DNA from: Nitrospinota bacterium
Lineage (GTDB): Bacteria > UBA8248
Reading direction: 5' to 3'
Length of the DNA: 57,855 nucleotides
NCBI GenBank assembly: GCA_030754595.1
Contig: JASLZZ010000130.1
Location: forward strand, 1 to 57,855
Shown here: positions 1,286 through 36,457 of the stretch, piece after piece
Numbering within the stretch: position 1 is the stretch's first letter
Layout of the letters: each line of letters begins with the position of its first letter
The notes under the pieces: model-generated
The model's database searches: none
The model's input: the letters and a program-made list of their open reading frames with translations, nothing else
Told to the model about the DNA's origin: nothing
Made by a program: the position numbers and the translations under genes

Positions 1286-1338
1286 CCTGCTTCATTTTTT
1301 CCGGCCCCCATTACCGCCCGAAAGAACAGGCATCCGGA

Positions 1339-2022: not shown

Positions 2023-2034
2023 GTCACCCTGCCA

Positions 2035-2580
2035 TCAAAGATTTCTGAGACGCTCCTCCACCGCATCCGCGTCGGTGAGAGGTTCCCGACAAACAAAATT
2101 CTCACAAATATAAACGGTAGCCGCGCTCTCCAATCTAACTTTTCCATCCAAAAAAGGCACCAGATTATTCGAATCGGTTCCATCCATGCCGGACTGAAAA
2201 GCAAGCACTTTGTTGGGGAGAAATACCCTATTCACCGCTCGGAGCGACGTTTTGCTGTCCAGAGAAAGAAGATCCCTCGCTATGGCGATTTCAAGGGGCT
2301 TATCAAGATGAAAATCAAGTGCGATGAGAAGCATAGGAAAAGCGGCTGGAACTTTTTCAAGGAGCTGCCCGTAGGCCTTAATTGTCCTAAACCCTTTCTC
2401 GGAAAAAAAAGTCATCCTCCAATAATTTCCCCAGACGCAGCAAAGCAATCGCCGCCACGGAATTCCCCGAGGGAATAGCGCCATCCTGTGATGTTTTCTT
2501 TCGGACGATGAGGTCTTCGTGATCGCTCGCCGTGAAAAAGAACCCCTCCCCGTCGTCATCCCAAAAGCGGGTGATCGCCT
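2035..2580 (-). pseudogene. C-terminal fragment of a YyaL/SSP411-like thioredoxin-domain protein, frameshifted
   Basis: RFWDDDGEGFFFT..DGAIPSGNSVAA..LLRLG in one frame, continuing to AT.YICENFVCREP in another. Shift at the T8 run (A8 at 2403-2410 on +). The N-terminal part of the protein is absent. Confidence 0.75.
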
Positions 2581-2719
2581 CCCGATCTCCTTCGCTCTCC
2601 GGACGGATCGCCAAGTTTTTCACGAATTCTTCTCTCCTATCCACGGAATGATGTTCCAACAGGGGCGCTTTCCTTGATTCCGCGCCGAGCACCAATAATC
2701 CGGGAGAGGAAGCCTCCCT

Positions 2720-4063
2720 CTAGGCCAAGCCTTCGATGACCGCCGTGGCGAGCTCGCTGCCGCGGTGGAGGAGATCGATCCGCAGATTTTCCTCGGGGGC
2801 GTGGGCGTTCGAGTCGGCGTTCGCGAAGGGGAACCAGAGCGAAGGAATGCCGAGATCGCGGGTGAAGTGAATGTCCGGGACGCTGCCCCCGGAGTTGGGA
2901 AAGACAATGGGCGGCTCGCCCCGCGCGGCGACGGCCGAGAAGATTTTCTCGATGAGGGGGTGGTCGGCGGGCGTCTTGCTCGGAAAAAAAGCGGCCTTCC
3001 GATCCACCTCGATGTCTCCGAAGCCCTCGGAGTCGAGGAATTCACATAAATCCCCGAAAATCTGGTCCGGGTCCTGATCAACCACGAGGCGAAAATCGAG
3101 TTTCGCCCTGGCCCCGCCGGGAAGGACGGTCTTCACCCCCTCCTGGGAGTAGCCGCCCTGAAAACCGCAAATATTCAAGTTCGGCTGGACGAGGGTTCTC
3201 TCGTAGAAGGCTGCGGGCTCGGGTATCCGCCGCATCCCCTCCTCGCCAAGGGCGGCGGCGAGTTCCGAGGCCGGGTCGGGAATCTCGGCGAGAGCCTTCC
3301 GGTCGGCCTCGCCCACCGGGCGGACAGCTCCGTAGAATCCGGGCACGCGCACACGGCCCTCCTCGTCCCGCAGGACGCGGACGGCCTCGATGAGCCGCCA
3401 GAACGGGCTCGCCACCGCACCGCCGTAGATCCCGGAGTGGAGATCCTTGCCCGCGCCCCTCGAGATTAGTTCGACATACAAAAGTCCGCGGCAGCCGAGC
3501 GTGATCGTCGGACGGTCCGAGGGGTGGAGGGAACCGTCCGACGAGCAGGCGATGTCCGCGCGGAAGAGATCGCGGTGCTCCGCCACGAACGCCCCCAAAT
3601 TCGTCGAACCCATCTCCTCTTCGCCCTCGATCAGGAATTTGACGTTGATCGGAAGCGCGGCGCCGGTCTCACGATAGGCCTGGGCCGCCTTGATCTGGGC
3701 GAAGTGCTGTCCCTTGTTGTCGGCGGCCCCACGGGCGTAGATGCGCCCATCGCGGATGTCGGGCTCGAAGGGCGGCGATGTCCAGCCCTCGGCGGCGTCC
3801 GCCGGCTGGACATCATAGTGCCCGTAAACGAGAAGCGTCGCCGCCCCCTCGGGGCCCTTCACCTCGCCGAAGACGGCGGGGTGACCGGCGGTGTCCATGA
3901 TCCGGGTGTCGATGCCGGCCCGCTCCATCAGGGCGGCCAGGTGCTCGGCTCCCTCGCGGACGCGGTGGCCGGTCGTGGAGACGCAGGGAATTTTCAGATA
4001 TTCGAGGAACTCGGCGAGATTCTCCTCCCGCCGGGAACGGAGGTACTCGATGACGGTGGACAT
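2720..4063 (-). CDS. M20 family dipeptidase / metallohydrolase
   Basis: YGHYDVQP, ARGAADNKGQ, EGEEEMGS and AHAPEEN motifs. Confidence 0.9.
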   Translation of the reverse strand: MSTVIEYLRSRREENLAEFLEYLKIPCVSTTGHRVREGAEHLAALMERAGIDTRIMDTAGHPAVFGEVKGPEGAATLLVYGHYDVQPADAAEGWTSPPFEPDIRDGRIYARGAADNKGQHFAQIKAAQAYRETGAALPINVKFLIEGEEEMGSTNLGAFVAEHRDLFRADIACSSDGSLHPSDRPTITLGCRGLLYVELISRGAGKDLHSGIYGGAVASPFWRLIEAVRVLRDEEGRVRVPGFYGAVRPVGEADRKALAEIPDPASELAAALGEEGMRRIPEPAAFYERTLVQPNLNICGFQGGYSQEGVKTVLPGGARAKLDFRLVVDQDPDQIFGDLCEFLDSEGFGDIEVDRKAAFFPSKTPADHPLIEKIFSAVAARGEPPIVFPNSGGSVPDIHFTRDLGIPSLWFPFANADSNAHAPEENLRIDLLHRGSELATAVIEGLA

Positions 4064-17924: not shown

Positions 17925-18014
17925 TTGTGGCCCGCGGCTGAGCGGGCCCCGCTGCAGAGCGTGACCCGGAATTTACCGTCCGATTTTTTTTAAGGAACAC
18001 CAGGGAGAATCGTC

Positions 18015-18686
18015 ATCGCGCAGCCAGGCGCCATTCTCGTCATCGCTCCCCACCCGGACGATGAGACGCTCGGACCGGGGGGGACCCTCCTCCGGCGCGC
18101 CGACGAGGGTTGGGAGCTTCACTGGCTGCTCGTGACCGACGGGCAACACGCAACCGGCGAGGCATCGGACGAGCGGCGCGAACACGAGATCGAGGCCGTC
18201 GCCGGACGCTACGACTTTAAAAGCATCCGCCGCCTGAAGATGCCGGTCTCGGCCCTCCACCGGGTGCCCGAGACGGAACTCTACGAGGGAATCGCCGGGG
18301 CGATCCGCGAGGCGGAGCCCTCCGAGGTGCTGCTCCCCTTCCGGAGCGATGCCCACAGCGACCATCACGCCGTCAACGCGATCGGCTGGTCGTGCTCGAA
18401 ATCGTTCCGCTTCCCCACGGTGCGCCGGGTGCTCATGTACGACACGCCCTCGGAAACCGATTTCTCGCACCCGGGCGATCCGTTCGTCCCTGGTGTGCTG
18501 GTGGACGTCACCGGCTACCTGGATCGCAAAATCGAGATCATGGGAATCTACGAGAGCGAGTTGAGGGCGCACCCCTTCCCGCGCTCCGAGGAAGCCCTTC
18601 GGGCGCGGGCAACGCTCTACGGCGCGATGGCGGGCTGCGTGGCGGCCGAGGGATTCATGCTCATGCGCGACATCGATCGTCTCTGA
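18015..18686 (+). CDS. PIG-L/LmbE family N-acetyl deacetylase (no canonical start codon)
   Basis: ILVIAPHPDDETLG lies upstream of and in frame with the predicted ORF; also DAHSDH, YDTPSET and FPRSEEA. The frame opens after TAA 17991 with only ATC after the GGGAGA RBS. Confidence 0.75.
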   Translation: MAQPGAILVIAPHPDDETLGPGGTLLRRADEGWELHWLLVTDGQHATGEASDERREHEIEAVAGRYDFKSIRRLKMPVSALHRVPETELYEGIAGAIREAEPSEVLLPFRSDAHSDHHAVNAIGWSCSKSFRFPTVRRVLMYDTPSETDFSHPGDPFVPGVLVDVTGYLDRKIEIMGIYESELRAHPFPRSEEALRARATLYGAMAGCVAAEGFMLMRDIDRL

Positions 18687-18689
18687 GGT

Positions 18690-19076
18690 TCAATCCTTCC
18701 GGTACTCCGAGATTTCGACGAGGTTACCGTCCGGGTCGCGGATGTAGGCCGAGGTGATCGACCCTTCGGCGTCCGACTTGAGGACGGGGCCCACCTCGAT
18801 GGAGACGCCGGCCTCCCCGAGTTGGCGGATGACCTCCGCTATCGGCTCTTCGCTGATCAGGCAAAAATCTCCCGCCCCAGGGGCGGGCGCCTTGGCCTTG
18901 GGCTCGAACTCGCGCCCCGCCTGGTGGAGGTTAATCTTCTGGCGGCCAAAAACGAGCGCCCGCCTACCGCTGTCGAACTTGACGGCCCTCATGCCCAACA
19001 CCCGATCATAGAATTCGCAGGTGGCCGGAATCGAGCGCACCGTCAGGACAAAATGATCGATCGCGGAAATCTTCAT
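18690..19076 (-). CDS. VOC/glyoxalase family protein
   Basis: IDHFVLTV, KINLHQ and YIRDPDGNLVEIS. Confidence 0.88.
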   Translation of the reverse strand: MKISAIDHFVLTVRSIPATCEFYDRVLGMRAVKFDSGRRALVFGRQKINLHQAGREFEPKAKAPAPGAGDFCLISEEPIAEVIRQLGEAGVSIEVGPVLKSDAEGSITSAYIRDPDGNLVEISEYRKD

Positions 19077-19296
19077 CGGCAGGTCAACTCTCCTCCTAGC
19101 CCCGGTTTCGGACTCGAAACGGCGAAATTGGGCCGCAATCTCCGATACCCAAAACGCCATCATCTACGAATGGCGGGGGAAGGTCCACGGCGATTCCGAC
19201 CGGACCACCCTTTTATCCCAGATTGGACAGCCGGGGGACGGAATCAGTAAAATCGGCTCACAGATTTGTTTTCAGTCAAACCCTGGAGAAAAATGA

Positions 19297-20606
19297 ATGC
19301 CAACTCCCGCGGAACTCGCGGAATGGGTCAACGATGCGCGGGACCGAACCCGCGAGTTCGTGGACGATCTTTCGGACGATCAACTCATCGGCCCGAAACT
19401 CATCTGCGTGAATCCACTTCTCTGGGAGATCGGGCACATGGCCTGGTTCCAGGGAAAATGGATGCTGCGCGGCATCAACGGGCGCGAGCCGATCCGCGCC
19501 GACGAGGACGAACCCTACGATTCCATGGAGATTCACCACCACACGAGGTGGGATCTTCCCCTGCCCCCGCGCCGGGAAATCTATCGCTACATGGACCAGA
19601 TCGTCGCCAAGGTGATGGAGCGCGTCGAAAGCGGCGGCCTGACCGAGGACGAGGCCTATCATGTCATGTACGGGGTCTATCACGAGGACATGCACACCGA
19701 GGCTTTCTCCTACACGCGTCAGACCCTGGGCTACCCGGTTCCCTCGGGGCTCCTCGAATACACCGAGCGCACCCGCACGAAAGAGGACATCGGCGGCGGA
19801 CCGTTCCCCGGCGATGCGCGGATACCGGGCGGCGTCTATATGCTCGGCGCCCCCAGGGACGAATCCTTCGCCTTCGATAACGAGAAGTGGGCGCACCCGG
19901 TCGAGATCGCACCATTCGCCATTGCCCGGGCGGCGGTGACACAGACCGAGTTCTCGGAGTTCGTTGACGGCGGCGGCTACCGGAACGAATCGCTCTGGTC
20001 CGGGGAGGGTGGAAGTGGCGCTCCGAGGAGGATTCACAGCATCCCGTTCATTGGCGCCGCGGCGCGGACGGTTGGGAGCGGCGCAACTTCGACGAGTGGT
20101 TGCCGCTCGAACCGCACCGGCCCGTGATTCACATAAACTTCTACGAGGCCGAGGCCTATTGCCGGTGGGCGGGCCGGCGGCTTCCCACCGAGGCCGAGTG
20201 GGAGTTGGCCGCCTCGGGCGAACGATCCGCCTCGGGCGGCGGATTCACCGAGCGAAAGCGGCGCTACCCCTGGGGGGATGAGCCGCCCACCCCGGATCGG
20301 GTCAACCTCGACTGGCGGCACATGGGCTGCGTGGACGTCGGCGCGTTTCCAAAGGGCGACAGCGCCTTCGGCTGCCGCCAGATGCTCGGGAACGCCTGGG
20401 AGTGGACCAGTTCGGTTTTCGCCCCCTTCCCCGGCTTCGTCGCCGACCCCTATAAGGACTACTCTGAGCCCTGGTTCCACTCGCGCCGGGTGCTTCGTGG
20501 AGGTGCCTGGCCCACCCGCTCCCGGTTGATCAGGAACCTGTATCGAAACTATTTTACCCCCGAGCGCAAGGATGTCTGGGCCGGATTCCGGACCTGCGCT
20601 CTCTAG
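19297..20606 (+). pseudogene. senA: Selenoneine synthase SenA (EgtB-like DinB + FGE-sulfatase domains), 1-nt frameshift
   Basis: NPLLWEIGHMAWFQ and HEDMHTEAF iron-binding motifs; FAFDNE, RRLPTEAEWE, GNAWEW and AGFRTC. Adding one base at 20007-20009 restores SGEGWKWR and a 436-aa protein. Directly upstream of senB. Confidence 0.8.
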
Positions 20607-20627
20607 ATGCCACTGCACCAAAGGCCG

Positions 20628-21581
20628 ATGAAAATATCCCTGGTGACTCCAGCCCCTCCCCGCTCCCGTAAGGGAAACCGCGTCACCGCGATTTCGTGGT
20701 CGCGCCACCTCCGGGCCCTGGGCCACCGCGTCTACATCGAAGAGAAATACACCGGGCGCGGTTGCGATCTGCTGATCGCCCTTCACGCACGGCGAAGCTT
20801 CCCCTCCGTCGCGCGGTTCCGGGAGGCGCACCCCGGCCTGCCGCTGATCGTCGGGCTCACCGGAACCGACCTCTACCAAGATATCCGCACCAACGCCGAC
20901 GCCCGGCTTTCCCTCGAGCTGGCCGACCGCCTGATCGTCCTTCAGTCGATGGGAGTGGAAGAGCTGCCCAGGCGTCACCGTGGCAAGGCACGGGTAATCG
21001 TCCAGTCCGTCAAAGCGCCCGCCGGTGATTTCCAGCCGCGCAAGGGTTCCTTCGAGGTATGCGTTGTCGGCCATCTGAGATCGGTTAAGGATCCGTTTCG
21101 CGCGGCGAAGGCCACCCGGCTGCTCAAGCCTCCCTCGAAAATTAAGGTGGTCCAGGCGGGAGGCGCCCTGACCAAAGAGATGGCGGATCAGGCCCGAAGC
21201 GAAGCGAAGACCAACCCGCGCTATAAGTGGATCGGAGAGATACCCCGCTGGAAGGCCCTACGGCTTATATCGAGAAGCCGGCTTCACGTCCTCAGCTCGG
21301 AAATGGAAGGCGGCGCCAATGTGCTCTGCGAGGCCATCGCTTGCTCGGTGCCGACGCTGGCATCCCGTATTTCGGGCTCCATCGGACTGCTGGGGGAGGA
21401 CTATCCTGGCTACTTCGAGGTGAAGGACACCGACAGGCTCGCGTCGATGCTGGACCGGGCCGAAAAAGACGCCGATTATTACCGCGAGCTCAAAAACTGG
21501 AGCAAGCGGATCAAGCCTATCGTCTCGCCTTCGACCGAGCGCAAATGCTGGAAGGACCTGATCGCCGAATTCTCGGCCTGA
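20628..21581 (+). CDS. senB: Selenosugar synthase SenB (TIGR04348-type glycosyltransferase)
   Basis: VTPAP..GNRVTA..W, LIALHARRS, LTGTDLY, VGHLRSVKDP, SSEMEGGANV and GLLGEDYPGYF; adjacent to an EgtB-like gene. Confidence 0.85.
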   Translation: MKISLVTPAPPRSRKGNRVTAISWSRHLRALGHRVYIEEKYTGRGCDLLIALHARRSFPSVARFREAHPGLPLIVGLTGTDLYQDIRTNADARLSLELADRLIVLQSMGVEELPRRHRGKARVIVQSVKAPAGDFQPRKGSFEVCVVGHLRSVKDPFRAAKATRLLKPPSKIKVVQAGGALTKEMADQARSEAKTNPRYKWIGEIPRWKALRLISRSRLHVLSSEMEGGANVLCEAIACSVPTLASRISGSIGLLGEDYPGYFEVKDTDRLASMLDRAEKDADYYRELKNWSKRIKPIVSPSTERKCWKDLIAEFSA

Positions 21582-21587
21582 TCGCCC

Positions 21588-22556
21588 TCAGTCGATTCTC
21601 AGATAGACGACGGCGAACAACCACCCTGCATCCGTCCAAACCCGCTCGGCCGTAAAGCCAACCTCCGCCGCGAACGCCGAAAAATCCTCGATGTCGTATT
21701 TGTGCGAATTTTCGGTATGGATGGCCTCGCCCTCCCGGAAGGCAAAGGCCTCCCCGCCCAGCCTCACGCTTTGGTCCGCCCGGCTCACCAGATGGCTTTC
21801 GATTCGCCGTTCGCCGTAATTATAGAATGCGAAGTGATCGAATTTCTCGAGATCGAAATCGGCGTCAAGCTCCCGGTTCATCCTGCGGAGAATGTTTTTA
21901 TTGAACTCCGCCGTCACACCCAGGCCGTCGTTATAGGCGGCCTCGAGCCTTTCAACGTCCTTGATGAGATCGATTCCGACCAAAAGCCCTCCTCCGCTCC
22001 CACAGGTTTTTGCCATGTTTTTCAGAAGCACCGCCGCCTCCTCCGGCGTCAGGTTGCCTATCGTGGAGCCGGGAAAATAGGCAACGGCACGCGCGGGCTT
22101 CCGCTTCGTCGGCGGCAGATCGAAGGGCTCGGAGAAATTAGCGCAGACGGGAAGAAACTCGATTTTCGGGAAAATCGCGGCCAGATCCTTCGCCGATCGA
22201 ATCAGGAACTCCCGCGATATATCCACTGGAATGCACGCAGCCGGCTCAATCAGGCGCTCCAGGAGGATGCGCGTCTTCAGGGCCGAGCCGATCCCGTACT
22301 CGACAATGGCGCATCCCGGACCGATGGCCTCGGCCATCTCGGAGGCATACTCTTGCATGATGGCGATCTCGGTGCGCGTCGGGTAGTACTCCTCGAGTTC
22401 GCAAATCCGCGCGAAAAGCTCCGAACCCCGCTCATCGTAGAAATAGTTGCAGGGGAGGGTTTTCCGGGGCTTCCGCAGGCCCGACAGCGCTTCCTCGAGA
22501 AAGCTGGCGGCGGTGGGCTCGCAATCAATTAGCTGGATTCCCTCAAACAGGTTCAC
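21588..22556 (-). CDS. egtD: L-histidine N-alpha-methyltransferase (hercynine synthesis)
   Basis: KTLP..YFYDERGSELF..ICELEEYYPTRTE, FPGSTIGN, AAYND..GVTAEFNKN and IHTENSHKY; GTG start after a GAGG RBS. Confidence 0.92.
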   Translation of the reverse strand: MNLFEGIQLIDCEPTAASFLEEALSGLRKPRKTLPCNYFYDERGSELFARICELEEYYPTRTEIAIMQEYASEMAEAIGPGCAIVEYGIGSALKTRILLERLIEPAACIPVDISREFLIRSAKDLAAIFPKIEFLPVCANFSEPFDLPPTKRKPARAVAYFPGSTIGNLTPEEAAVLLKNMAKTCGSGGGLLVGIDLIKDVERLEAAYNDGLGVTAEFNKNILRRMNRELDADFDLEKFDHFAFYNYGERRIESHLVSRADQSVRLGGEAFAFREGEAIHTENSHKYDIEDFSAFAAEVGFTAERVWTDAGWLFAVVYLRID

Positions 22557-22753
22557 ACGGACCTCTTTGACAATCTTCCCGCCGGCGGGCGGGCGAGAAA
22601 ATTCCGGGCCGGGGCCCTTTTCGAATTTACACATATGGGTCGATGATAGGGCGTGAAACACTCATTCAAAGACAGAGTGAGCATGAACTCCCGGCAGGGT
22701 AGCACAAAGATCGGCCGATTCAACCGAATGCGCCCGGCCGCCTTGGGACTCAC

Positions 22754-24274
22754 CTATAACCGGGGCGCGAGGCGCAGCCCCTCCGGTACGAAGAACCGCT
22801 CGGTCAGATCGAACCCCCACTGAACTATCAGGGCGAGCGCCGCGGCGGGCACCGCCCCCTCGAGGATGAGCCCTACATCGTCAAGCCGGATGCCCGTCAG
22901 GATCGGCTGGCCGTATCCCCCGGCCCCGATGAGGGCGCCAAGCGTCGCCGTGCCCACATTGATCACAGCCGAGGTCTTCACGCCCGCCAGGATGGAGCGC
23001 GAGGCCATGGGAAGTTCTACCCGCCGCAGCCGCGCCAGGGGCGGAAGACCCAGCGCCGCCGCCGACTCCCTGAGGCCCGCCGGAATATCGTGGAGACCGG
23101 CGTGGGTGTTCCGCACGATGGGAAGCAGGCTGTACAGAAACAGCGCCATTATCGCCGGCGGCCCGCCGATGCCGAGAAGCGGGATCATGAACACGAGGAC
23201 GGCGAGCGAGGGGATCGTCTGAATGACGCCGACGGCGCCGAGTATGAATCGCCCCGTGGCCTGCCGCCTGGCGGCGACAATCCCCAATGGTATAGAGACG
23301 AAAATAGCGGCGCCCAGGGAGATCAGAACCAGATAGAGGTGATCGCGGGTGTTACGCAGAAGCCGCCGCCAGCGCGTATTCTCTACGGCGGACGACTGGA
23401 CGCCGAGCGATTCCCGGAGAAAATCGGACGCCACCCGCCTCTCCGGAGTCTTCTCGATTTTCGCCCGGGCGTTCAGCCCGATCATCCGGCCCTCGCCGAT
23501 TCGCCCCTCGAGGCGGAGGACGGAGCGCACGGCCGCCGGGGCAGTATTTTCGAGCTCCGTTCTGTAGAGGATCACGGCATCATAGCGGGGGAAGTGGCCC
23601 AGGTCATCCTCGAGGGCGAGCAGGTCGTAATACCGGATATCCGCGTCGGTTGAGTAGAGATCGATCACCTGAACGCTTCCGCTTTCGAGCGCCCGGTAGG
23701 CGATGTCGTGGTCGAGTCCGCGGACAAACGTCTGGGGAAGGCGGTATCGGCCCCTGAGGCTGGGCCATCCGTCCCCCCGGTTCATGAACTCATTCGTAAG
23801 CCCGAACTTCAGGGCCGGGCGCGCACGGAGATCCGAGATCGAACGGATGCCGAGCTTGCCCGCAACCTCTTTTTTCATTCCCATCGCGTAGGTGTTGTTG
23901 AAGCCGATGGGGCGGCTCATCGAGACGCCGCGCTTTTTCAGCGCCCCCCGGATGTCGACCTCTTTTTTCAGACTCCGGCCGGCCATAATTTCCTGGCCGA
24001 TGGTTCCGGTGTACTCGGGATAGATGCCCACCTCTCCGGCGAGGAGGGCGTTCCAAAGGATGCGCGTGCCGCCGAGTTCGCGGCGGTGGCGGGCGGCGCT
24101 TCCCGAGTCCCGCACGAGGCCCGCGAGAATCTCGCCGAGGATGACGGACTCGGTGAATTTCTTCGAGCCCACCGTGACTTCGTTTCCAGAGGCGGACGGG
24201 AGTACGGCGACGGCCGAGAACGCGGCGATGAAAAACGAGAGGGTAATTCCCCACGGCCCGCCGGTGAATCTCAT
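22754..24274 (-). CDS. Betaine/quaternary-amine type ABC transporter: substrate-binding domain fused to permease
   Basis: VGSKKFTES, YPEYTGT, GFNNTY and DLYSTD (OpuAC/OsmF-like), followed by TM domain QTIPSLA..ESAAALG. Start 24274 or 24283. Confidence 0.88.
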   Translation of the reverse strand: MRFTGGPWGITLSFFIAAFSAVAVLPSASGNEVTVGSKKFTESVILGEILAGLVRDSGSAARHRRELGGTRILWNALLAGEVGIYPEYTGTIGQEIMAGRSLKKEVDIRGALKKRGVSMSRPIGFNNTYAMGMKKEVAGKLGIRSISDLRARPALKFGLTNEFMNRGDGWPSLRGRYRLPQTFVRGLDHDIAYRALESGSVQVIDLYSTDADIRYYDLLALEDDLGHFPRYDAVILYRTELENTAPAAVRSVLRLEGRIGEGRMIGLNARAKIEKTPERRVASDFLRESLGVQSSAVENTRWRRLLRNTRDHLYLVLISLGAAIFVSIPLGIVAARRQATGRFILGAVGVIQTIPSLAVLVFMIPLLGIGGPPAIMALFLYSLLPIVRNTHAGLHDIPAGLRESAAALGLPPLARLRRVELPMASRSILAGVKTSAVINVGTATLGALIGAGGYGQPILTGIRLDDVGLILEGAVPAAALALIVQWGFDLTERFFVPEGLRLAPRL

Positions 24275-25023
24275 TCGCCCCACCCGCCCATGGCATCGAG
24301 CGGGCTCCGCTGGGCGTTGATGAAGCGGGTGACGAAATCATCCGCCGGCCGGCGGAGGAGATCCTCGAGGCTGCCCTGCTGATGGATTAGACCCTCTTTC
24401 ATCAGAAAAATGTCGTCTCCGAAAAAACCCGCCTCGCCGATATCGTGCGTTACCATGACCACGGTTTTGTTCAGTTGCCGGAAAATTTTCCGGAGATCGT
24501 CCTGGAGTTCATGGCGAATCATCGGGTCGAGCGCACCGAGCGGCTCGTCGAGAAGCAACACTTCGGGGTCGAGCATGAGGGCGCGCATGAGGCTGACGCG
24601 CTGGCGCTGGCCGCCGGAAAGTTGGGCGGGAAACCGGTCAAGCCCACCCCTGGGGAACCGGGTCAGGGAGGCGAGCTCTTCAAGGCGGCCCTCGATCCGC
24701 TCGCCGGGCCATTTCAGGTGGCGGGCCATCAGCGTCACATTGTCTCGGGCCGTCAGGTGGGGAAAAAGCCCTCCGTCCTGGATGACATAGCCCAGCCGCA
24801 GCCTCAGAGCGAGAATATTCGAGGGAACGAGGCGATCACCGTCCAAAAAGACCTCGCCCGAGTCCGGGGGGACGAGGCCGATCATGAGCCGAAGGAGGGT
24901 GCTCTTGCCGCATCCGCTCCGCCCGATCAGAACGCTGGTCCGCCCCGGTTTGACCTCGATCGAGAGCGGACCGGCCGCGCGCGCACCGCCGTAGGATTTC
25001 GACACCCCTTCGAGCTTCAGCAA
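24271..25023 (-). CDS. ABC transporter ATP-binding subunit (OpuBA/ProV-like, no CBS domains)
   Basis: GRSGCGKST, LGYVIQDGGLFPH, LSGGQRQR and LLLDEP. Confidence 0.9.
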   Translation of the reverse strand: MLKLEGVSKSYGGARAAGPLSIEVKPGRTSVLIGRSGCGKSTLLRLMIGLVPPDSGEVFLDGDRLVPSNILALRLRLGYVIQDGGLFPHLTARDNVTLMARHLKWPGERIEGRLEELASLTRFPRGGLDRFPAQLSGGQRQRVSLMRALMLDPEVLLLDEPLGALDPMIRHELQDDLRKIFRQLNKTVVMVTHDIGEAGFFGDDIFLMKEGLIHQQGSLEDLLRRPADDFVTRFINAQRSPLDAMGGWGE

Positions 25024-25215
25024 ATGGAACCTCCCGCCAAAATCTCAGTCACTTTATCACATCCTTGCGGCGGAAGCCGAACGGAGTCGCAGGCCAATAA
25101 CTGAAATACGGGATGGGTAACCGCGAATAAGGATGGTTTAATCGGGAGCGTCAGAGAGCCGGGAGTCCATTAACCCTCCGGTGGCAGGGGGCGAAGACCC
25201 CGGAGAGAGACGAAA

Positions 25216-25494
25216 CTAGGCGGCGTGGCCTACGGCGAGTTCGTGCATGGAGATATGACAAGGGAAGTAGAGAACCTCTCCCCGCGGGTCTTCGATGACG
25301 ACCGTGCAGGATCCGAATTCCTTCAGCATTCTCAGGAGCGAGTTAATTTCCCACTCCTCGCGCCGCCTGACGCCGATGCTCCAGATAAGACGTTCGGAGA
25401 GTTCTCCAATGGACTCGTCCACCCTCCAGGTAATGCTCGGATGCTCCTCGGAGTAAAAGTCCACGATAAACCCTCCTAAATTACTAGAGGTCAT
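25216..25494 (-). CDS. Hypothetical protein (92 aa)
   Basis: Protein-like composition and a GAGG RBS before ATG; no recognised family. Confidence 0.5.
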   Translation of the reverse strand: MTSSNLGGFIVDFYSEEHPSITWRVDESIGELSERLIWSIGVRRREEWEINSLLRMLKEFGSCTVVIEDPRGEVLYFPCHISMHELAVGHAA

Positions 25495-25606
25495 TTCATA
25501 ACCTCTTTCGCGGAATCTTCGTCCGTCAAAGGCCTTGATTTTATCGGCCTTCTCACAGGGGTGGAAACCTCGGGAATGGATTATGAAATGACTTCTAATT
25601 ATTTTG
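25476..25606. repeat. Imperfect 26-bp inverted repeat flanking a 79-bp spacer
   Basis: Reverse complement of 25476-25501 (ttatgaaatgacctctagtaatttag) versus 25581-25606 (ttatgaaatgacttctaattattttg): 22/26 identical. Confidence 0.75.
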
Positions 25607-25738
25607 AGCATTTTTCCTGGAACAGGGATTGCGGCCCTGCCCGCCGGAAATCCTCTGATCCTTCATCATCTCTTATCGGCCGGAATCGGCCCGGCCTTAA
25701 TGGAAAAACCGAGAATGAAAAATCGAGGAAATCGGACG

Positions 25739-26710
25739 CTATCTTCCCGCCTCCGGGGCGAGGCAGGTTCGAAGGGAGGAGGTCATCCGCCTCATCAGCG
25801 AAAAATACATGTCTCCGCCCGGCTTCAGGTCCGCACCGAGAGGATCGAGCACCCCCAATCTCGCGCCTGTTCCCTCCATCACCATTTTGGCCAGCCGAGG
25901 AGTAAACTGAGGTTCGGCTAAAATACAGGCCACCCGGAGTGAGCGAATTGTACTCCGAATTAGCGTGAGACGCTTCGCCCCCGGCCGCCGTCCGGGAGCG
26001 ACGGCGATGGCTCCCGCCGGGCTCAGGCCGAACCGCGACTCAAAATACCGGTAAGCATCGTGAAATACGACATAGGGCGCCCCCGCCAGAGGATCTAGCT
26101 CCGCGCGGATTTCACCGGTGAGCGAACCGAGCCTTTGGGACAGCGCCGCCGCATTTTTCTGGTAGAGCGCCGCGTTCGCCGGGTCCACACGGCTCAACTC
26201 CGCCGCGATTTTTCGCGCCATGTGCTGGGCGTTTTGGGGGTCGAGCCAGATATGTGGGTCGGTTCCTCCGCCGTCTCCGGCCTGCGCCTCCTTGAGGTTG
26301 CCGCCCCCAGCCTCCCATGCCCTTGCCCGGTGGACCCCTGCCCGACGGGCTGGAAGGAGAATAAGGCCCTTCGCCTCCGAGAGCGTAACGAGCGCGCCGC
26401 GCCGAAGAAGGGACACAAGCGGCCGCTTAAGAGCGGTTTCGAGCCCCTCTCCCACCCAGAATACGAGACGGGCCCGCCGAAGCGCCCGCGCCCCCGAGGG
26501 CCTCAGGGCATAGGAATGTGGGGAGGCCGCACCGCGTATGAGGAGAGCCGGCTCCCCCGCCCCCCGCATCACGCCCGCCACCAGGGAGTGAATCGGCTTG
26601 ATGGTGGCGACGACCGCAGGCGCCACCCCTGCCTGAGCAGCGGCGCGGGCAGCGGCTGGGATGGTAAGCAGAGAGCCGGCGAGCAGCAGGCCGGTCAGTG
26701 ATCGCCTCAT
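25739..26710 (-). CDS. znuA: Zinc ABC transporter substrate-binding protein
   Basis: VVATIKPIHSL, ASPHSY, DPHIWLDP, VFHDAY and LDPLG; signal peptide. Confidence 0.9.
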   Translation of the reverse strand: MRRSLTGLLLAGSLLTIPAAARAAAQAGVAPAVVATIKPIHSLVAGVMRGAGEPALLIRGAASPHSYALRPSGARALRRARLVFWVGEGLETALKRPLVSLLRRGALVTLSEAKGLILLPARRAGVHRARAWEAGGGNLKEAQAGDGGGTDPHIWLDPQNAQHMARKIAAELSRVDPANAALYQKNAAALSQRLGSLTGEIRAELDPLAGAPYVVFHDAYRYFESRFGLSPAGAIAVAPGRRPGAKRLTLIRSTIRSLRVACILAEPQFTPRLAKMVMEGTGARLGVLDPLGADLKPGGDMYFSLMRRMTSSLRTCLAPEAGR

Positions 26711-26772
26711 CAAAAGATCCTCAAAATATAATTTATTCAATAGGGCGAAAATTTCGATCTTCCCGCCGATAT

Positions 26773-26790
26773 TTATGTTATAACATAACA
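26773..26790. promoter_or_regulatory. Zur box in the divergent znuA / zur-znuCB promoter
   Basis: Perfect palindrome ttatgttataacataa overlapping TGTTATnnnATAACA, which resembles proteobacterial Zur operators. Confidence 0.8.
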
Positions 26791-26847
26791 ATACGGGCGC
26801 CCCAAGGGGTTTCAGAGAGCCTCGGCAGCATACCCGGGCGCTCGATA

Positions 26848-26965
26848 GGCGTTTCGAATCAAGGGGGGCCGGGCGTTTCGGCTCATGCGGGATCGGGCAT
26901 TCCGAATCAAGCGGGGCCGGCGTTCCGGCTCACGCGGGTTCGGGGGTTCCGACTCAAGTGGGCTC
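26848..26965 (+). repeat. Degenerate tandem repeat of about 24 bp, five units
   Basis: ggcgtttcgaatcaaggggggccg / ggcgtttcggctcatgcgggatcg / ggcattccgaatcaagcggggccg / gcgttccggctcacgcgggttcg / ggggttccgactcaagtgggctc. Confidence 0.75.
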
Positions 26966-27024
26966 AAAACCCATGGCGCCCCTTTCATTACGCTCGTTTC
27001 AAAGACACTTTTCACCAGGGAGCG

Positions 27025-27735
27025 ATGATGCCGGCTCATGACCCGTGGGACCACAACCCGGAGGCTGCTTTCCTCCTCCGCGATTCCGACATTCACCCCG
27101 GGGCCGGAGGCCCCCCGGAGGACGCTTCCATCCCCCGCGATCACGGCCTCCCCCACGATCACGGGCCCGGAAAATCCACCCCGGGGGTCATCGACCCGGG
27201 GATCACGGACCCGGAGGACCCCAGTCCCGAGGACGCATTCCACCCCCGAGAACACGATCACGGCCACTGCATCGCGGACGCCCTGTTAAAGGCCGAGGCG
27301 ATCTGCACCAGACGGGGCGCCCGCCTGACGCGCATCCGCCGGAGCGTTCTTGAATTCGTCTGGGAGAGCCACTCCCCCGTCGGCGCCTACGACATTTTAG
27401 ATCGCATGAACGCAGACGGCCCCTTGCCGGGGGGCGGTCCCCGCAGCGCGCCGATCACGGTCTACCGCGCCCTCGAATTCCTGATGGCCCAGGGCCTCGT
27501 CCACCGCCTCGCCAGCATGAACGCCTACACCGGCTGCGGGCTGCCGGGCACCCCCCACGGCGCGCATTTCCTGATCTGCGACGATTGCGGCGCCGCCGCC
27601 GAGCTCCATGACACCGATATCGAGCGGGCCATCTCGCGGGGGGCCGCCCGCGCCGGTTTCGCCATAAAATCCCCCGTCGTCGAAGTGCAGGGCCGCTGCC
27701 CCGCCTGCCGGCCCTTCCAAGACGAGGCCGAGTAG
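27025..27735 (+). CDS. zur: Zinc uptake regulator (Fur family) with long N-terminal extension
   Basis: HDHGHC, GARLTRIRR, GAYDIL, PITVYRALEFL and CDDC...CPAC; within the znu locus. Confidence 0.88.
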   Translation: MMPAHDPWDHNPEAAFLLRDSDIHPGAGGPPEDASIPRDHGLPHDHGPGKSTPGVIDPGITDPEDPSPEDAFHPREHDHGHCIADALLKAEAICTRRGARLTRIRRSVLEFVWESHSPVGAYDILDRMNADGPLPGGGPRSAPITVYRALEFLMAQGLVHRLASMNAYTGCGLPGTPHGAHFLICDDCGAAAELHDTDIERAISRGAARAGFAIKSPVVEVQGRCPACRPFQDEAE

Positions 27736-28674
27736 ATGACAGCGCGACCGAGCAATGAGGTTCTGATTGGCGAGGGGGCTCTGATTGAGGGTAAAGGCAT
27801 CGGCCACGCCTTCGAAAAAAACAGCGTCCTCTCCGGCGTCGATATCTCGGTCTCCCCCGGCGAGATCGTCACCCTCATCGGCCCGAACGGCGCGGGTAAA
27901 ACCACCCTCGTCCGCGTCCTCCTCGGCCTCCTCCGGCCAGACTCAGGCGAAGTCGTGAGGCGCCCCGGCCTCGTCGTGGGCTACCTGCCCCAACAGCTCG
28001 CCATCGACCCCGTACTCCCGATGACGGTGCGCCGCCTCCTCCGGCTGACGAACCGGCCCGGTCCGGGAGAGATGACGGAAGCCCTCGCGGAAACCGGGGC
28101 GGCCCACCTGATCGACCGCGCCGTGCAGGACCTTTCGGGGGGCGAGCTACAGCGGGTCCTCCTCGCGCGGGCGCTGGCCCGGCGGCCCGACCTCCTCGTG
28201 CTCGACGAGCCCATCCAGGGAATCGACATCTCGGGCCAGACCGAGCTTTACGAGCTCATCGCCCGAATCCGGAGCCTGCGGGGCTGCGGCGTCCTGATGA
28301 TCTCCCACGACCTCCACATCGTCATGGCCTCGACCGACCGGGTCGTCTGCATCAACCGCTACCTCTGCTGCTCGGGCCACCCCGAGACCGTGAGCCGCCA
28401 CCCCGAATACATGGCCATGTTCGCCCCCCACGATGCGCGGACCCTCGCCGTCTACACCCACGACCACGATCACAGCCACGACCTCGCCGGTCATGTCGTT
28501 CCAATCGGAGATGGGGAGCATGCCTCCCCCGGCTCCCCCGATCATGCCCACGATAATTCGAGCCACGAGCATGATAACGAACACCCGGAAGATGAGGATG
28601 GCCACGACGCCTCCAGCGGAGGCGGCGCTCATCCAGGCCCTGGAAGGGCCCCCACCGGAGGTGACGCCTTTTGA
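27736..28674 (+). CDS. znuC: Zinc ABC transporter ATP-binding protein with His/acidic tail
   Basis: GPNGAGKTT, LSGGELQR, CINRYLCCSGHP and YTHDHDHSHD. Confidence 0.9.
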   Translation: MTARPSNEVLIGEGALIEGKGIGHAFEKNSVLSGVDISVSPGEIVTLIGPNGAGKTTLVRVLLGLLRPDSGEVVRRPGLVVGYLPQQLAIDPVLPMTVRRLLRLTNRPGPGEMTEALAETGAAHLIDRAVQDLSGGELQRVLLARALARRPDLLVLDEPIQGIDISGQTELYELIARIRSLRGCGVLMISHDLHIVMASTDRVVCINRYLCCSGHPETVSRHPEYMAMFAPHDARTLAVYTHDHDHSHDLAGHVVPIGDGEHASPGSPDHAHDNSSHEHDNEHPEDEDGHDASSGGGAHPGPGRAPTGGDAF

Positions 28675-29474
28675 TCTTCGAGGACTTCATCTGGCGCGCC
28701 CTGCTCGGCGGGGCCGGAGTCGCGTCGGTCAGCGGCCCGCTGGGCTGCTTCATCGTCTGGCGGCGAATGGCCTATTTCGGGGACTCGGTGGCGCACAGCG
28801 CCCTGCTCGGCGTCGCCCTCGGGTTTTTCTTCGGAATCGACATCAGGCTCGGCACGCTCATCGCCTGCGTCTCGCTCGCCCTTTTTCTCGTTCTCCTTCA
28901 GGGGCAAAAGCGGCTCTCCTCTGACACGATACTCGGCATCCTCGCGCACACCGCGCTCTCGGTCGGCCTCGTCACGATCAGCTTCATGGAATCGCTCCGG
29001 GTGGACCTGATCGGCTACCTTTTAGGCGACATCCTCTCGGTCACGGCATCCGACATCGGATGGATATACGGCGGCGGGGCGCTCGCGCTCGTCTGGCTCG
29101 CCCTGATCTGGCGTTCCCTGATGGCCATCACCGTCCACGAGGAACTCGCGCGGGCTGAGGGTATCCCGGTCTGGGCGGTCCGGGTCTCCTTCATGGCGCT
29201 CATCGCGTTCGTGATCGCAATCGCCATGAAGATCATCGGCATCCTCCTGATCACCTCGCTGCTCATCATCCCCGCCGCCACCGCGCGTCGCTTTTCCAGA
29301 ACCCCCGAGCAGATGGCCGCCCTCGCCGCCCTTTTCGGCGGGCTCGCCGTCCTCGGGGGAATCATGGCCTCGCTCAGATGGGACACCCCGTCCGGGCCAT
29401 CGGTTGTGGTGGCCGCCGCGGCGCTGTTTGCCGTTAGTTCGATGGGGGGTGTGGTTTTGGGGAGAGCGAGGTGA
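28671..29474 (+). CDS. znuB: Zinc ABC transporter permease
   Basis: GPLGCFIVWRRMAYFGD..AHSALLG and LLIIPAATAR. Confidence 0.92.
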   Translation: MIFEDFIWRALLGGAGVASVSGPLGCFIVWRRMAYFGDSVAHSALLGVALGFFFGIDIRLGTLIACVSLALFLVLLQGQKRLSSDTILGILAHTALSVGLVTISFMESLRVDLIGYLLGDILSVTASDIGWIYGGGALALVWLALIWRSLMAITVHEELARAEGIPVWAVRVSFMALIAFVIAIAMKIIGILLITSLLIIPAATARRFSRTPEQMAALAALFGGLAVLGGIMASLRWDTPSGPSVVVAAAALFAVSSMGGVVLGRAR

Positions 29475-29790: not shown

Positions 29791-30687
29791 ATGGCCAACG
29801 AAGAACACCTCGCCATCCTTAAGCAGGGGGTGGAGGCCTGGAACAAATGGCGGGAGAAGAATCCGAATATCCATCCGGACCTCAGTTCGGCGAGGCTCAT
29901 CGACGCGAACCTCACTAACGCGAACCTCAACAAGGTAAGCCTCTTCAGGGCAGACCTTAGCAGATCGAACTTCACCGAGGCGGACCTCAACAGGGCGAAT
30001 CTCGGCGGGACGAACCTCAACGGGACGAACCTCGTCGGGGCGGACCTCAGCGGGGCGAACTTTTATGAAACCATTTTCGCCGATGTAGATTTGAGCGAGG
30101 TCAAGGGACTGGATAAATGTATACATCATGGCCCAAGCACGATTGACCACCGCACCCTGATGAAATCCGGCGAATTGCCCCTGGAATTTCTCCGGGGAGT
30201 GGGCCTGCCGGACGATTACATTCAATTTCTCGCATCCTTCCGGAACGAACCTTTTCAGTTTTATTCCTGCTTCATCAGCTATTCACACAAGGACGAAGAG
30301 ATCGCCAAACGATTGTATGATGCCCTTCAAGGCGAAGGCGTTCGCTGCTGGTTCGCGCCGGAGGACATGAAAATTGGGGACAAGACCCGCCGCCGGATCG
30401 ACGATTCGATCCGGGTGCACGACAAGCTTCTTCTAATCCTTTCGGAAAATTCGATTGCGAGTGACTGGGTGGAATACGAGGCCGAGCGGGCGCTGGATCA
30501 GGAGCGGAAGCGCGGCGGAACCGTACTGTTCCCCATTCGCCTCGATGACGCCATTACGAAAGTGGAAGGAGGCTGGGCGGATCATATCCGCGAACGCCAC
30601 ATTGGCGACTTCCACAACTGGAAAGACCACGACAGCTATCAGAAGGCTTTTGACCGGCTGATGCGGGATTTAAAGGCGGAAGAGTAG
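29791..30687 (+). CDS. Pentapeptide-repeat + TIR domain protein
   Basis: A(D/N)L pentapeptide repeats, then CFISYSHKD, RCWFAPED, SDWVEYE and LFPIRLDD (TIR_2-like); strong AGGAGG RBS. Confidence 0.88.
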   Translation: MANEEHLAILKQGVEAWNKWREKNPNIHPDLSSARLIDANLTNANLNKVSLFRADLSRSNFTEADLNRANLGGTNLNGTNLVGADLSGANFYETIFADVDLSEVKGLDKCIHHGPSTIDHRTLMKSGELPLEFLRGVGLPDDYIQFLASFRNEPFQFYSCFISYSHKDEEIAKRLYDALQGEGVRCWFAPEDMKIGDKTRRRIDDSIRVHDKLLLILSENSIASDWVEYEAERALDQERKRGGTVLFPIRLDDAITKVEGGWADHIRERHIGDFHNWKDHDSYQKAFDRLMRDLKAEE

Positions 30688-34399: not shown

Positions 34400-35304
34400 A
34401 ACGAATTCTGAAAAAATGGCGGTTCCCGGCGTTTCGCTATACCGCTCTGATTGCCTGGGCGCTGATCGCCACGTTTCCCATCTTCTGGATCGTCTCGACC
34501 TCGTTCAAGCCCGACCACGAGTGGTTCGCCTGGCCGCCGGTCTATTGGTCCGAAAACGCCACCATGAACAACTACAACATGGTTTGGGGCAACCCCACGA
34601 CGGAAAAAGAGCTCACCCAGAGCTACACGTCGGGCAAAGCGGTGAAGCTCGAGTCCGTCCCCCTGAACAAGGCCTGGGTGGCCTTGCGGACCAGCCTGAT
34701 GACATCCCTGATCGCCACCGCCTTCTCGGTCGCCTTCGGCACCCTTCTAGCGTACGGGGTGTCCCGGTACCGGATATTGTCGGACGTGCGGATGTTCCAG
34801 CTTCTGGTCCTGAGAATGATACCGCCCATCGTCGTCGCGGCCCCCCTCACATTGTACTACTCGACGATCCATCTCATGGACAGTATCACCGGCCTTGTCA
34901 TCGTCTACTTCATCACGACGCTGCCCTACGCCGTCTGGATGACGAAAAGTTTTATCGACGAGGTTCCCCTCGAGATGGAGCAGGCGGCCGAGATACTGGG
35001 AGCGAGCCGCTGGCAGACGATCTGGGAGGTCGTTCTGCCCCTCGTCCGCTCCGGTATCGTGGCGACCTTTCTCTTTATTCTCATTTTGACCTGGAGCGAG
35101 TACCTGCTCTCCTTCATTCTCTCGAAGGTGGACGTGGTGACGCTGCCGGTCCAGCTCAGCAAATACGAGGGATCGACCGAGGGCCGCGTCTACGGCCATC
35201 AGGCGGCACTGGCGGTAGGAATCACGCTCCCGCTGATGATCATCGGAATATTCATTCGCAAACACCTGGTCCGGGGATTCAGTTTCGGAATGGTGAAGAG
35301 GTAA
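34396..35304 (+). CDS. Carbohydrate ABC transporter permease
   Basis: FPIFWIVSTSFK, LPYAVW..FIDEVP.EMEQAA and KHLVRG. Confidence 0.88.
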   Translation: MKRILKKWRFPAFRYTALIAWALIATFPIFWIVSTSFKPDHEWFAWPPVYWSENATMNNYNMVWGNPTTEKELTQSYTSGKAVKLESVPLNKAWVALRTSLMTSLIATAFSVAFGTLLAYGVSRYRILSDVRMFQLLVLRMIPPIVVAAPLTLYYSTIHLMDSITGLVIVYFITTLPYAVWMTKSFIDEVPLEMEQAAEILGASRWQTIWEVVLPLVRSGIVATFLFILILTWSEYLLSFILSKVDVVTLPVQLSKYEGSTEGRVYGHQAALAVGITLPLMIIGIFIRKHLVRGFSFGMVKR

Positions 35305-35310
35305 TCGACC

Positions 35311-36408
35311 GTGGCTCATATCGAACTCAAGGGACTCAGAAAAGTTTTCGGCAAGAACATCGAGGCGGTGAAGAACATCGACCTCTCGATCGAGGACGGC
35401 GAGTTTCTCGTCCTCGTCGGCCCATCGGGCTGCGGGAAGACGACGACCCTCCGCATGATCGCGGGCTTCGAGGAGCCCACCGCGGGCGAGATCGTCATCG
35501 ACGGCAACGTGGTCAACGACATGGAGCCGAGCCAGCGCAACCTCGGCATGGTTTTTCAGAACCACGCCCTGTTCCCGCATAAAACCATTTTCCAGAACAT
35601 CGAGTTCGGCCCGCGCATGAAAAAAATCGACCCCGGAACGCGGAAACGGCGCGTTGCCGAAGTGGCCGAGATGGTCCGGATCACGGACCTCCTCGACAAG
35701 CTGCCGGGCCAGTGCTCGGGCGGCGAGGCCCAGCGCGTCGCCCTCGCCAGGACGCTTATCACCGACCCTTCAATCTTCCTGCTCGACGAGCCCCTCTCGA
35801 GCCTGGACGCCAAGCTGCGCCGCGAGATGCGGGCCGAGATCGACCGCCTCCACCAGGAACTGAAAAAATCGTTCGTTTACGTGACCCACGATCAGGAAGA
35901 GGCGATGACCCTCGCCGACCGGATCGTCGTCATGCGGGGCGGCCTCATCGAGCAGGTGGGAAGCCCCTTGGAGATATACGGCGACCCGGTGAGTTATTTC
36001 GTCGCGGATTTCTTCGGCAGCCCGTCGATGAATCTCATCGCGGGGAACGTTCAAAAAGCCGGCGGCGCCCCCTCTTTCGAGGGCGCGGGGATATCCGTAA
36101 ATCTCTCGAACGGGTTCTCGGGGATCGCGGAGGGGGCCTACACCCTGGGGGTGCGGCCCGAGCATCTCGAGGTATCGCCCATCGGCTCCGGGGGAGACTC
36201 CGTCGCTCTTCAGTGCGATATCGGCCTGGTGGAGCCCCTCGGGAAAGACACCCTGCTCTATTTCGACCACGGCGCCGAGCGCCCCACCATCGCCGTCGTC
36301 GATGGGTCGGAGGGCGGCCACAAGGCCGGAAACCGTGTGGGGCTCACGATTCCCTCCGGCGCCCTCTACCTCTTCGGCCCGGACGGACGGCGCGTGCGCT
36401 CCGCCTAG
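35311..36408 (+). CDS. Carbohydrate ABC transporter ATP-binding protein (MalK-like)
   Basis: GPSGCGKTT, CSGGEAQR, YVTHDQEEA and a TOBE-like tail. Confidence 0.92.
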   Translation: MAHIELKGLRKVFGKNIEAVKNIDLSIEDGEFLVLVGPSGCGKTTTLRMIAGFEEPTAGEIVIDGNVVNDMEPSQRNLGMVFQNHALFPHKTIFQNIEFGPRMKKIDPGTRKRRVAEVAEMVRITDLLDKLPGQCSGGEAQRVALARTLITDPSIFLLDEPLSSLDAKLRREMRAEIDRLHQELKKSFVYVTHDQEEAMTLADRIVVMRGGLIEQVGSPLEIYGDPVSYFVADFFGSPSMNLIAGNVQKAGGAPSFEGAGISVNLSNGFSGIAEGAYTLGVRPEHLEVSPIGSGGDSVALQCDIGLVEPLGKDTLLYFDHGAERPTIAVVDGSEGGHKAGNRVGLTIPSGALYLFGPDGRRVRSA

Positions 36409-36457
36409 AGGCATCGCCTCCTAGAGGATAAAAACACCAATAAAAAATATTCGCCGG

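Follow-up and report, generated by a model that had tools for sequence, protein, structure and literature searches.

Bacterial uptake of ergothioneine is so far known only from EgtU in organisms that do not produce the compound. EgtU pairs a small ATPase with a single chain in which permease and binding domain are fused, and it has been described from non-producers, almost only from Firmicutes and from Helicobacter pylori (PMC9732360). Here we describe a similarly composed pair of genes from a Nitrospinota bacterium (assembly GCA_030754595.1, contig JASLZZ010000130.1, positions 1 to 57,855); this whole stretch of 57,855 nt is referred to as the window. On its minus strand, the gene of an ATP-binding cassette (ABC) ATPase (24271-25023) is followed by a gene in which an OpuAC binding domain is fused to a permease (22754-24283) and then by egtD (21588-22556), which encodes L-histidine N-alpha-methyltransferase, the hercynine synthase. 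We propose that the two transporter genes encode an importer or recapture system of the quaternary-amine class that is kept by producers and whose cargo is hercynine, ergothioneine and/or selenoneine, and we give this reading a probability of about 0.6. We infer the ligand from the gene context, and likewise the direction of the physiological flux, that is, recapture or scavenging.

The likeness to EgtU, the ergothioneine-specific importer of Streptococcus pneumoniae and H. pylori (PDB 7TXK, 8DP6/8DP7), includes the fold of the binding domain, for which Foldseek gives a TM-score of 0.93 to the apo form of the H. pylori protein (HpEgtU). In contrast to EgtU, the family of the window is found in carriers of egtD, i.e. 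in presumed producers. ProX of A. fulgidus (AfProX; PDB 1SW1, 3MAM), which binds glycine betaine and proline betaine, has the same fold and about 32% sequence identity as well; however, AfProX serves an osmoprotectant system as a free binding protein, with no reported link to egt genes. OpuA of Lactococcus lactis and the ProU and OpuC systems belong to the same ABC subfamily, and OpuA is also a fusion of permease and binding domain, but there the binding domain is C-terminal. Furthermore, the ATPases of OpuA, ProU and OpuC have tandem CBS domains, whereas the ATPase of the window has none. Tandem CBS domains provide the osmotic gating of such ATPases and define the osmoregulated group.

The ATPase gene of the window encodes 250 aa. 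PF00005 (ABC_tran, 116 bits) is the only Pfam match, and the best NCBIfam match is to the proV subfamily (TIGR01186, 214 bits) at profile positions 3-233 of 363; since the match stops at position 233, the C-terminal part with the CBS domains is missing. A Walker A motif (GRSGCGKST), a signature motif (LSGGQ), a Walker B motif (LLLDEP) and an H-loop can be read in the translation. The open reading frame (ORF) of the fusion gene overlaps that of the ATPase gene by 13 nt and encodes 509 aa. Its N-terminal half is the OpuAC binding domain, of cluster F-III (PF04069, 155 bits, about aa 35-292, nt 23408-24181), with a hydrophobic segment (aa 13-31) at the N-terminus before it. The C-terminal half is the permease (PF00528, BPD_transp_1, 76 bits, aa 331-486), which matches MetI and the permease chains of OpuA (PDB 7AHC). 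Its transmembrane segments begin at aa 318 (nt 22823-23332), the hydrophobic segments being aa 318-336, 346-364, 369-390 and 469-487, and an EAA-like loop is present. The binding domain is presumably exported and tethered to an N-out MetI-like permease; the linker before the first permease helix is rich in Arg, which is unusual.

The features looked for in this class were thus all found, and the ATPase and the fusion form a binding-protein-dependent importer of the quaternary-amine (OpuB/OpuC/EgtU) class. Binding-protein-dependent ABC systems of this class import. Secretion of the pathway product by a system that exports could be considered, as the transporter genes sit among biosynthetic genes and as an ergothioneine exporter is not known from any organism (PMC12689799). 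However, the extracytoplasmic binding domain, the MetI-like permease and the EAA loop together make up the build of a type I importer, so that we regard secretion as very improbable. The ORFs and the Pfam and NCBIfam matches also agree with the original prediction, which was made from the sequence of the window and described an ATPase without CBS domains and a fusion of binding protein and permease directly upstream of egtD on the same strand.

To place the importer among its relatives, we used the fusion in a word-based database search, in which at least 8000 candidates were scored, all at E <= 0.001. The best 120 of these at least 8000 relatives are 63-100% identical to the fusion and all have OpuAC before BPD_transp_1. 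Among the sources of these 120 are Nitrospinaceae, Kuenenia, Scalindua, Poribacteria, Aminicenantes and Thermodesulfovibrionales. With its binding domain at the N-terminus, the window locus is thus no exception. The original prediction had used it to set the locus apart from EgtU: the difference itself is real, as OpuAC precedes the permease here whereas in EgtU the membrane domain is N-terminal and the binding domain C-terminal (PMC12922746), but as a distinguishing mark it falls away because this is the standard order among the best 120 relatives.

The gene order around the transporter was compared at two scales. In a first set of 14 related loci from at least six phyla, the fusion is in every case immediately preceded by an ATPase relative of the same length. 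The egtD gene lies directly downstream of the fusion in five of them, or five of the ten with enough downstream sequence; these five belong to two Nitrospinota, one Nitrospinaceae, one Gammaproteobacteria and one Myxococcota. The genomes of 13 of the 14 loci have egtD, which includes eight of the nine without a demonstrated adjacent egtD, where the gene lies elsewhere. The second collection comprises 50 distinct fused loci, the window included, for which the matches of two phylum surveys were fetched and mapped by tblastn. In 23 of these 50 loci, egtD, EgtB, SenA or SenB is present in the fetched stretch.

Several arrangements recur among these loci (numbered with L). ATPase, fusion, egtD, senA and senB follow each other on one strand in three Nitrospinota loci (L024, L026, L027), and L011 starts in the same way up to senA, within which its contig ends. 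The convergent form that is found in the window occurs in L007, L008, L021, L022 and L023. In a more distant Nitrospinota family (L029-L032, 40-42% identity), senB, or senB and senA, are found beside the fusion. In Planctomycetota, ATPase, fusion, EgtB and egtD follow each other on one strand (L041-L044). Relative to the fusion, EgtB and egtD are convergent in L036 and divergent in L053, and SenA and egtD are convergent with it in L038. The assignments are backed by NCBIfam scores of 459-553 bits for EgtB (cut-off 360; L036, L041, L053) and of 465-532 bits for SenA (cut-off 420; L027, L031, L038). All 13 carriers from the taxonomic family of the window have egtD downstream of the fusion and on its strand.

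As the fusion family stands beside both EgtB and SenA/SenB, it is tied to the sulfur branch and to the selenium branch of the pathway. When the 50 proteins were placed on a quick maximum-likelihood tree, linked loci turned up throughout its two main clades, and the minimum number of changes on this tree is 3-4 for SEN and 3 for EGTB. The presence of the transporter in one gene string with egt and sen genes in many unrelated bacteria suggests that it probably handles histidine betaines and not ordinary osmoprotectants. Since the linkage extends to EgtB-type as well as to SenA/SenB clusters, nothing points specifically to selenoneine.

Two loci of a more distant clade have a divergent EgtD-like methyltransferase directly upstream of the ATPase-fusion pair: L050 in genome G165 (2240-3148; NCBIfam 168 bits, below the TIGR03438 cut-off) and L062 in genome G399 (1197-3212; Pfam 226 bits). 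The EgtD-like ORF of L062 also contains a class I methyltransferase domain.

The transporter also co-occurs with egtD across genomes. Among 51 genomes of Nitrospinota, egtD is present in 18/18 carriers of the transporter and in 2/33 non-carriers (Fisher p = 7e-12). In even samples of Planctomycetota (201 genomes) and Myxococcota (151 genomes), the corresponding counts are 23/27 against 25/174 (Fisher p = 3e-13) and 15/16 against 51/135 (Fisher p = 1.5e-5), where all three p-values overstate the evidence because related genomes are not independent. When the three phyla are pooled (403 genomes), egtD is found in 56/61 carriers and 78/342 non-carriers. Co-occurrence and linkage with egt/sen genes were the test that the original prediction had named, and the link proved strong in both, across several phyla. 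The egtD gene of one Nitrospinota carrier is split by a contig end. Two of the four Planctomycetota carriers without egtD have an unfused protein, and these unfused proteins are probably outside the transporter family.

These counts bear on an alternative in which the system is a plain osmoprotectant importer (for glycine betaine, proline betaine or choline) that came to lie next to egt and sen genes through a shared stress neighbourhood or a marine habitat. However, 33 of the 51 Nitrospinota genomes do without the transporter, including 23/23 of the largest genus sampled, and within this phylum its presence follows egtD almost exactly. Genomes with other OpuAC proteins are also not enriched for egtD: in our Planctomycetota control, egtD was found in 5/20 genomes with another OpuAC protein and in 20/154 without any OpuAC domain. 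Furthermore, tight same-strand strings with egtD, egtB, senA and senB recur in several phyla, and the ATPase lacks the CBS domains of the osmoregulated OpuA/ProU type, a point in favour of an importer for histidine betaines.

In two of the five control genomes with egtD (G102 and G260), a fusion in the order of EgtU, with the permease first, lies beside egtD or about 2 kb from it. In G102 (L060, 2-2182), this fusion adjoins egtD, and an EgtB-like gene is convergent; in G260 (L061, 2646-7335), a class I/II aminotransferase gene is present, and a gap of about 2 kb lies between the fusion and egtD. These EgtU-order fusions strengthen the general link between this class of binding domains and egt genes.

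We then analysed the binding pocket, for which the residues of the fusion were mapped via the printed PDB alignment onto the residues described for EgtU of Streptococcus pneumoniae (SpEgtU). The best PDB sequence match is EgtUC of S. pneumoniae (E about 1e-36), with A. fulgidus ProX and H. pylori EgtU nearly equal. With the family profile, EgtUC and a sensor scaffold derived from a choline/betaine binder both reach 270 bits, Lmo1422 263 bits and AfProX 247 bits. An AlphaFold (AF2) model of the binding domain has a pLDDT of 94.7 and a TM-score of 0.89-0.93 to apo HpEgtU, Lmo1422, the sensor scaffolds and open AfProX, and of 0.76-0.77 to ligand-bound SpEgtUC and AfProX (1SW1); its sequence identity to these structures is 28-32% throughout. 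An assignment of the domain to either EgtU or AfProX by sequence or fold failed, as all are about 32% identical to it and have similar scores.

Many of the residues that contact the ligand in EgtU are kept. The aromatic cage of EgtU (N339, Y341, Y419, Y443) corresponds to N130, Y132, Y210 and Y234, the clamp (K242, T296, R379) to K41, T94 and R169, and the imidazole-binding E375 to E165; T73 corresponds to T275. Across the 50 members, Y91, Y132 and Y234 of the cage are invariant, with Y210 in 47/50 and N130 in 49/50; K41, T94 and R169 of the clamp are invariant, and E165 is found in 47/50. On the basis of these residues, a betaine with a carboxylate would certainly fit into the pocket.

Other positions are changed, namely F43 for G244, Y91 for F293, F128 for Y337, H192 for P401, K42 for I243 and G72 for T274, and at family level position 243 is variable. 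In EgtU, the invariant G244 leaves room for a water network around the thione, and F293/Y337 form an 'F-Y switch' relative to AfProX, whose own state is Phe in place of G244 together with a Tyr/Phe pair (PMC9732360). The same source reports that the affinity of SpEgtU for ergothioneine is 100-fold lower in G244F, 10-fold lower in F293Y and 400-fold lower in E375Q, and unchanged in T274G. EgtU pockets vary among themselves, as the H. pylori protein has P243, G274 and I451. Like AfProX, the window family has a cage of four Tyr and has Phe at the positions of G244 and Y337 of EgtU, a comparison that is based on the statements of the EgtU paper and on collinear numbering. The window family thus departs from EgtU in three features, i.e. 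domain order, G244 and the F/Y pair, and we do not file it as EgtU. As the pocket is AfProX-like and lacks these EgtU residues, it is the gene context that points to the ligand. The pockets of sen-linked and egtB-linked transporters show no consistent difference among the 50 members.

The residue H192 deserves separate mention. It is found in 41/50 members, with Gln in the distant sen-linked Nitrospinota and Asn in the only genome of the first set without egtD. Because it stands where EgtU contacts the thione sulfur, the distal pocket differs from that of all solved relatives. A conserved polar residue that is specific to the family could fit an importer with a different quaternary-amine or sulfonium cargo, one that supplies the pathway or goes along with it, for example a methylated or oxidised derivative of ergothioneine or selenoneine, a histidine-betaine peptide, or a methyl donor to make up for the three S-adenosylmethionine (SAM) molecules used by EgtD; the cage and the clamp require only a betaine-like head. 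However, no gene for a side pathway of this sort was observed to accompany the transporter, the recurring neighbours being only egtD, EgtB, SenA and SenB, and we consider a cargo of this kind improbable.

Several observations weigh against an importer for histidine betaines. The binding domain is about 32% identical to SpEgtU, HpEgtU and AfProX alike, and 28-29% identical to the sensor scaffolds derived from Thermoanaerobacter. Phe stands at the invariant G244 of EgtU (F43) in 50/50 members, and Y91 (50/50) and F128 (47/50) at the positions of F293/Y337 form the AfProX arrangement. No egt or sen gene is present in the fetched stretch of 27/50 fused loci, and unrelated neighbours were found in the six loci examined for this (L013, L014, L015, L017, L019, L020). 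The co-occurrence counts and the Fisher tests ignore shared ancestry and habitat, and 5/61 carriers are without a detectable egtD. In the genome of the window, the OpuAC domain of the fusion is the only one found, and no BCCT carrier was found. Lastly, a gap of 197 nt (22557-22753) with a hairpin lies ahead of egtD and is bridged by no RNA contig.

Some of these points lend themselves to the osmoprotectant explanation: the first shell of the pocket is that of AfProX (four Tyr, Phe at G244 and the K/T/R clamp), the sole OpuAC domain of a marine genome in which no BCCT carrier was found could simply serve the uptake of glycine betaine, and about half of the 50 loci have no egt or sen neighbour. 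The names given in databases, 'osmoprotectant transport system permease' and 'glycine betaine ABC transporter', agree with it as well. Against the genomic distribution and the recurrent gene strings described above, we judge a plain osmoprotectant importer to be unlikely, although it is the strongest of the alternatives. The original prediction of a distinct importer for histidine betaines, possibly for selenoneine, is therefore retained in part: the linkage to egt and sen genes speaks for it, whereas the additional EgtB clusters do not single out selenoneine, and the AfProX-like pocket lacks the residues that mark EgtU.

For an importer of histidine betaines, we propose the following mechanism. 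The binding domain would be exported and held by the first membrane helix. There, the trimethylammonium head of the ligand would be trapped in the aromatic cage of Y91, Y132, Y210 and Y234 with N130 as its floor, and the carboxylate would be clamped by K41, T94 and R169. The loaded binding domain would then dock on the permease dimer, and the ATPase without CBS domains would power the uptake. The imported compound may be the cell's own leaked product, or hercynine, ergothioneine or selenoneine from the community. A comparable role is known from TeaABC of Halomonas elongata, the transporter with which an ectoine producer recaptures its own leaked ectoine. TeaABC is of the tripartite ATP-independent periplasmic (TRAP) class, so that the likeness is in role only, i.e. 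a producer that recovers its own leaked solute, and the transporter class is unrelated.

Placing the importer with egtD, senA and senB would allow the cell either to make hercynine or to take hercynine or the product from outside. Hercynine is attractive as a cargo because both linked pathways have it as an intermediate; it is also the stable compound in which their oxidation ends, and its import would bypass the three SAM-dependent methylations of EgtD. It is a tentative and rather doubtful extension of our proposal that the family fills the place of an uptake system so far missing for producers of ergothioneine and selenoneine, that its true ligand is hercynine and that the ATPase-fusion-egtD-senA-senB string of Nitrospinota forms a 'make or take' operon.

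The window corresponds to contig C130 in a metagenome-assembled genome of 3.55 Mb (96.9% complete, 6.4% contamination). Its egtD scores 389.5 bits with TIGR03438, above the equivalog cut-off of 290.9, and 356 bits with PF10017. The transporter genes and egtD, all on the minus strand, converge on two genes of the plus strand: senB (20607-21581; selenosugar synthase, TIGR04348, 386 bits, cut-off 300), which is convergent with egtD, and senA (19297-20606; selenoneine synthase, NF041186), which is read in two frames. The matches of senA to NF041186 are split, with profile positions 4-237 and 265-382 in different frames, as one G is missing from a run of G (20000-20012, near 20006), where the window has GGGGA-GGG and L007 and L008 have GGGGAGGGG. 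This senA with its missing G recurs, aligned with 0 gaps, in contigs from two further DNA runs that belong to other studies; the deletion is thus a feature of the population and not an assembly slip. A second, intact SenA is encoded on contig C23 (L059, 6181-7512; 489 bits, cut-off 420). No selD, the gene type to which senC of a sen cluster belongs, is present in the window, and a Sec-type selD lies on contig C16. No EgtB above its cut-off was found in the genome, and the predicted product of the pathway in this organism is selenoneine and not ergothioneine. Beside senA, a gene of the VOC/glyoxalase family (18690-19163, minus strand) is divergent from it and is conserved at this place in L007, L008, L021, L022 and L023; an accessory role in the sen cluster is conceivable for it.

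The egtD ORF is open over 21588-22661. GTG at 22556 is the likely start, with AAGAGG at 22567-22562 before it, and this start leaves the 197-nt gap to the fusion gene, in which a weak hairpin and a T-tract are found at 22711-22727. The number of terminator-like sites in the region shows no excess, with 7 against 5.2 +/- 2.2 in shuffled sequences. An Rfam scan of 18000-27000 gave a chance SgrS-like match (E 0.06) as its sole hit, so that there is no sign of a riboswitch ahead of the operon. A TGTG(A/G)TA motif is conserved about 35 nt upstream of the ATPase start in four close relatives and may be an extended -10 element. Near-verbatim copies of the locus stretch occur in 18 marine DNA runs from 10 studies. 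Furthermore, four short metatranscriptome contigs from two RNA runs of one study are 100% identical to the ATPase gene and to two parts of the fusion gene; among these four contigs, none lies on egtD and none spans the gap at 22556-22754. They are weakly compatible with expression of the transporter, and carry-over of DNA could also account for them. The transporter may be co-transcribed with egtD in the window.

Upstream of the ATPase gene, an ORF of 131 aa that belongs to no known family (25216-25611, minus strand) lies between it and znuA and is found at the same place in L007, L021 and L022 (72%, 75% and 44% identity). It is followed by a zinc uptake cluster (25739-29474) with znuA on the minus strand and a Zur-like ORF, znuC and znuB on the plus strand. 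The Zur-like ORF has an N-terminal extension of about 190 aa that is rich in Pro, His and Asp, and ZnuC has a C-terminal tail rich in His and Asp. Further along, a pentapeptide-repeat protein of 298 aa (29791-30687, plus strand) has a HetL-like match, and its C-terminal half appears TIR-like by eye. The G+C content is lower in positions 1-2000 of the window (0.475) and in 34416-36431, where two ORFs have a third-position G+C of 0.40-0.45 against about 0.8 elsewhere. Both stretches may be foreign DNA.

Our search of the literature, which left most subscription journals and supplements outside, found no bacterial transporter of hercynine or selenoneine in print and no functional study of the transporter clade; in the literature on salt adaptation of anammox bacteria, nothing was found on the Kuenenia ortholog. 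In a paper from 2026, the co-localisation appears as two rows of a table without comment, and the text groups the genes with housekeeping genes (PMC13674229). The preprint on the discovery of selenoneine biosynthesis mentions only a putative selenate transporter and an occasional egtD near sen clusters.

If the more doubtful extension to a 'make or take' operon holds, the system would be, in marine nitrite oxidisers, the first bacterial transporter that serves selenoneine metabolism. If our proposal as such is correct, producers would not only make these antioxidants but also exchange or recapture them, and histidine betaines would have a second type of binding pocket that is built differently from the first. 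The family would also offer a handle on the cycling of selenium and sulfur antioxidants in the sea.

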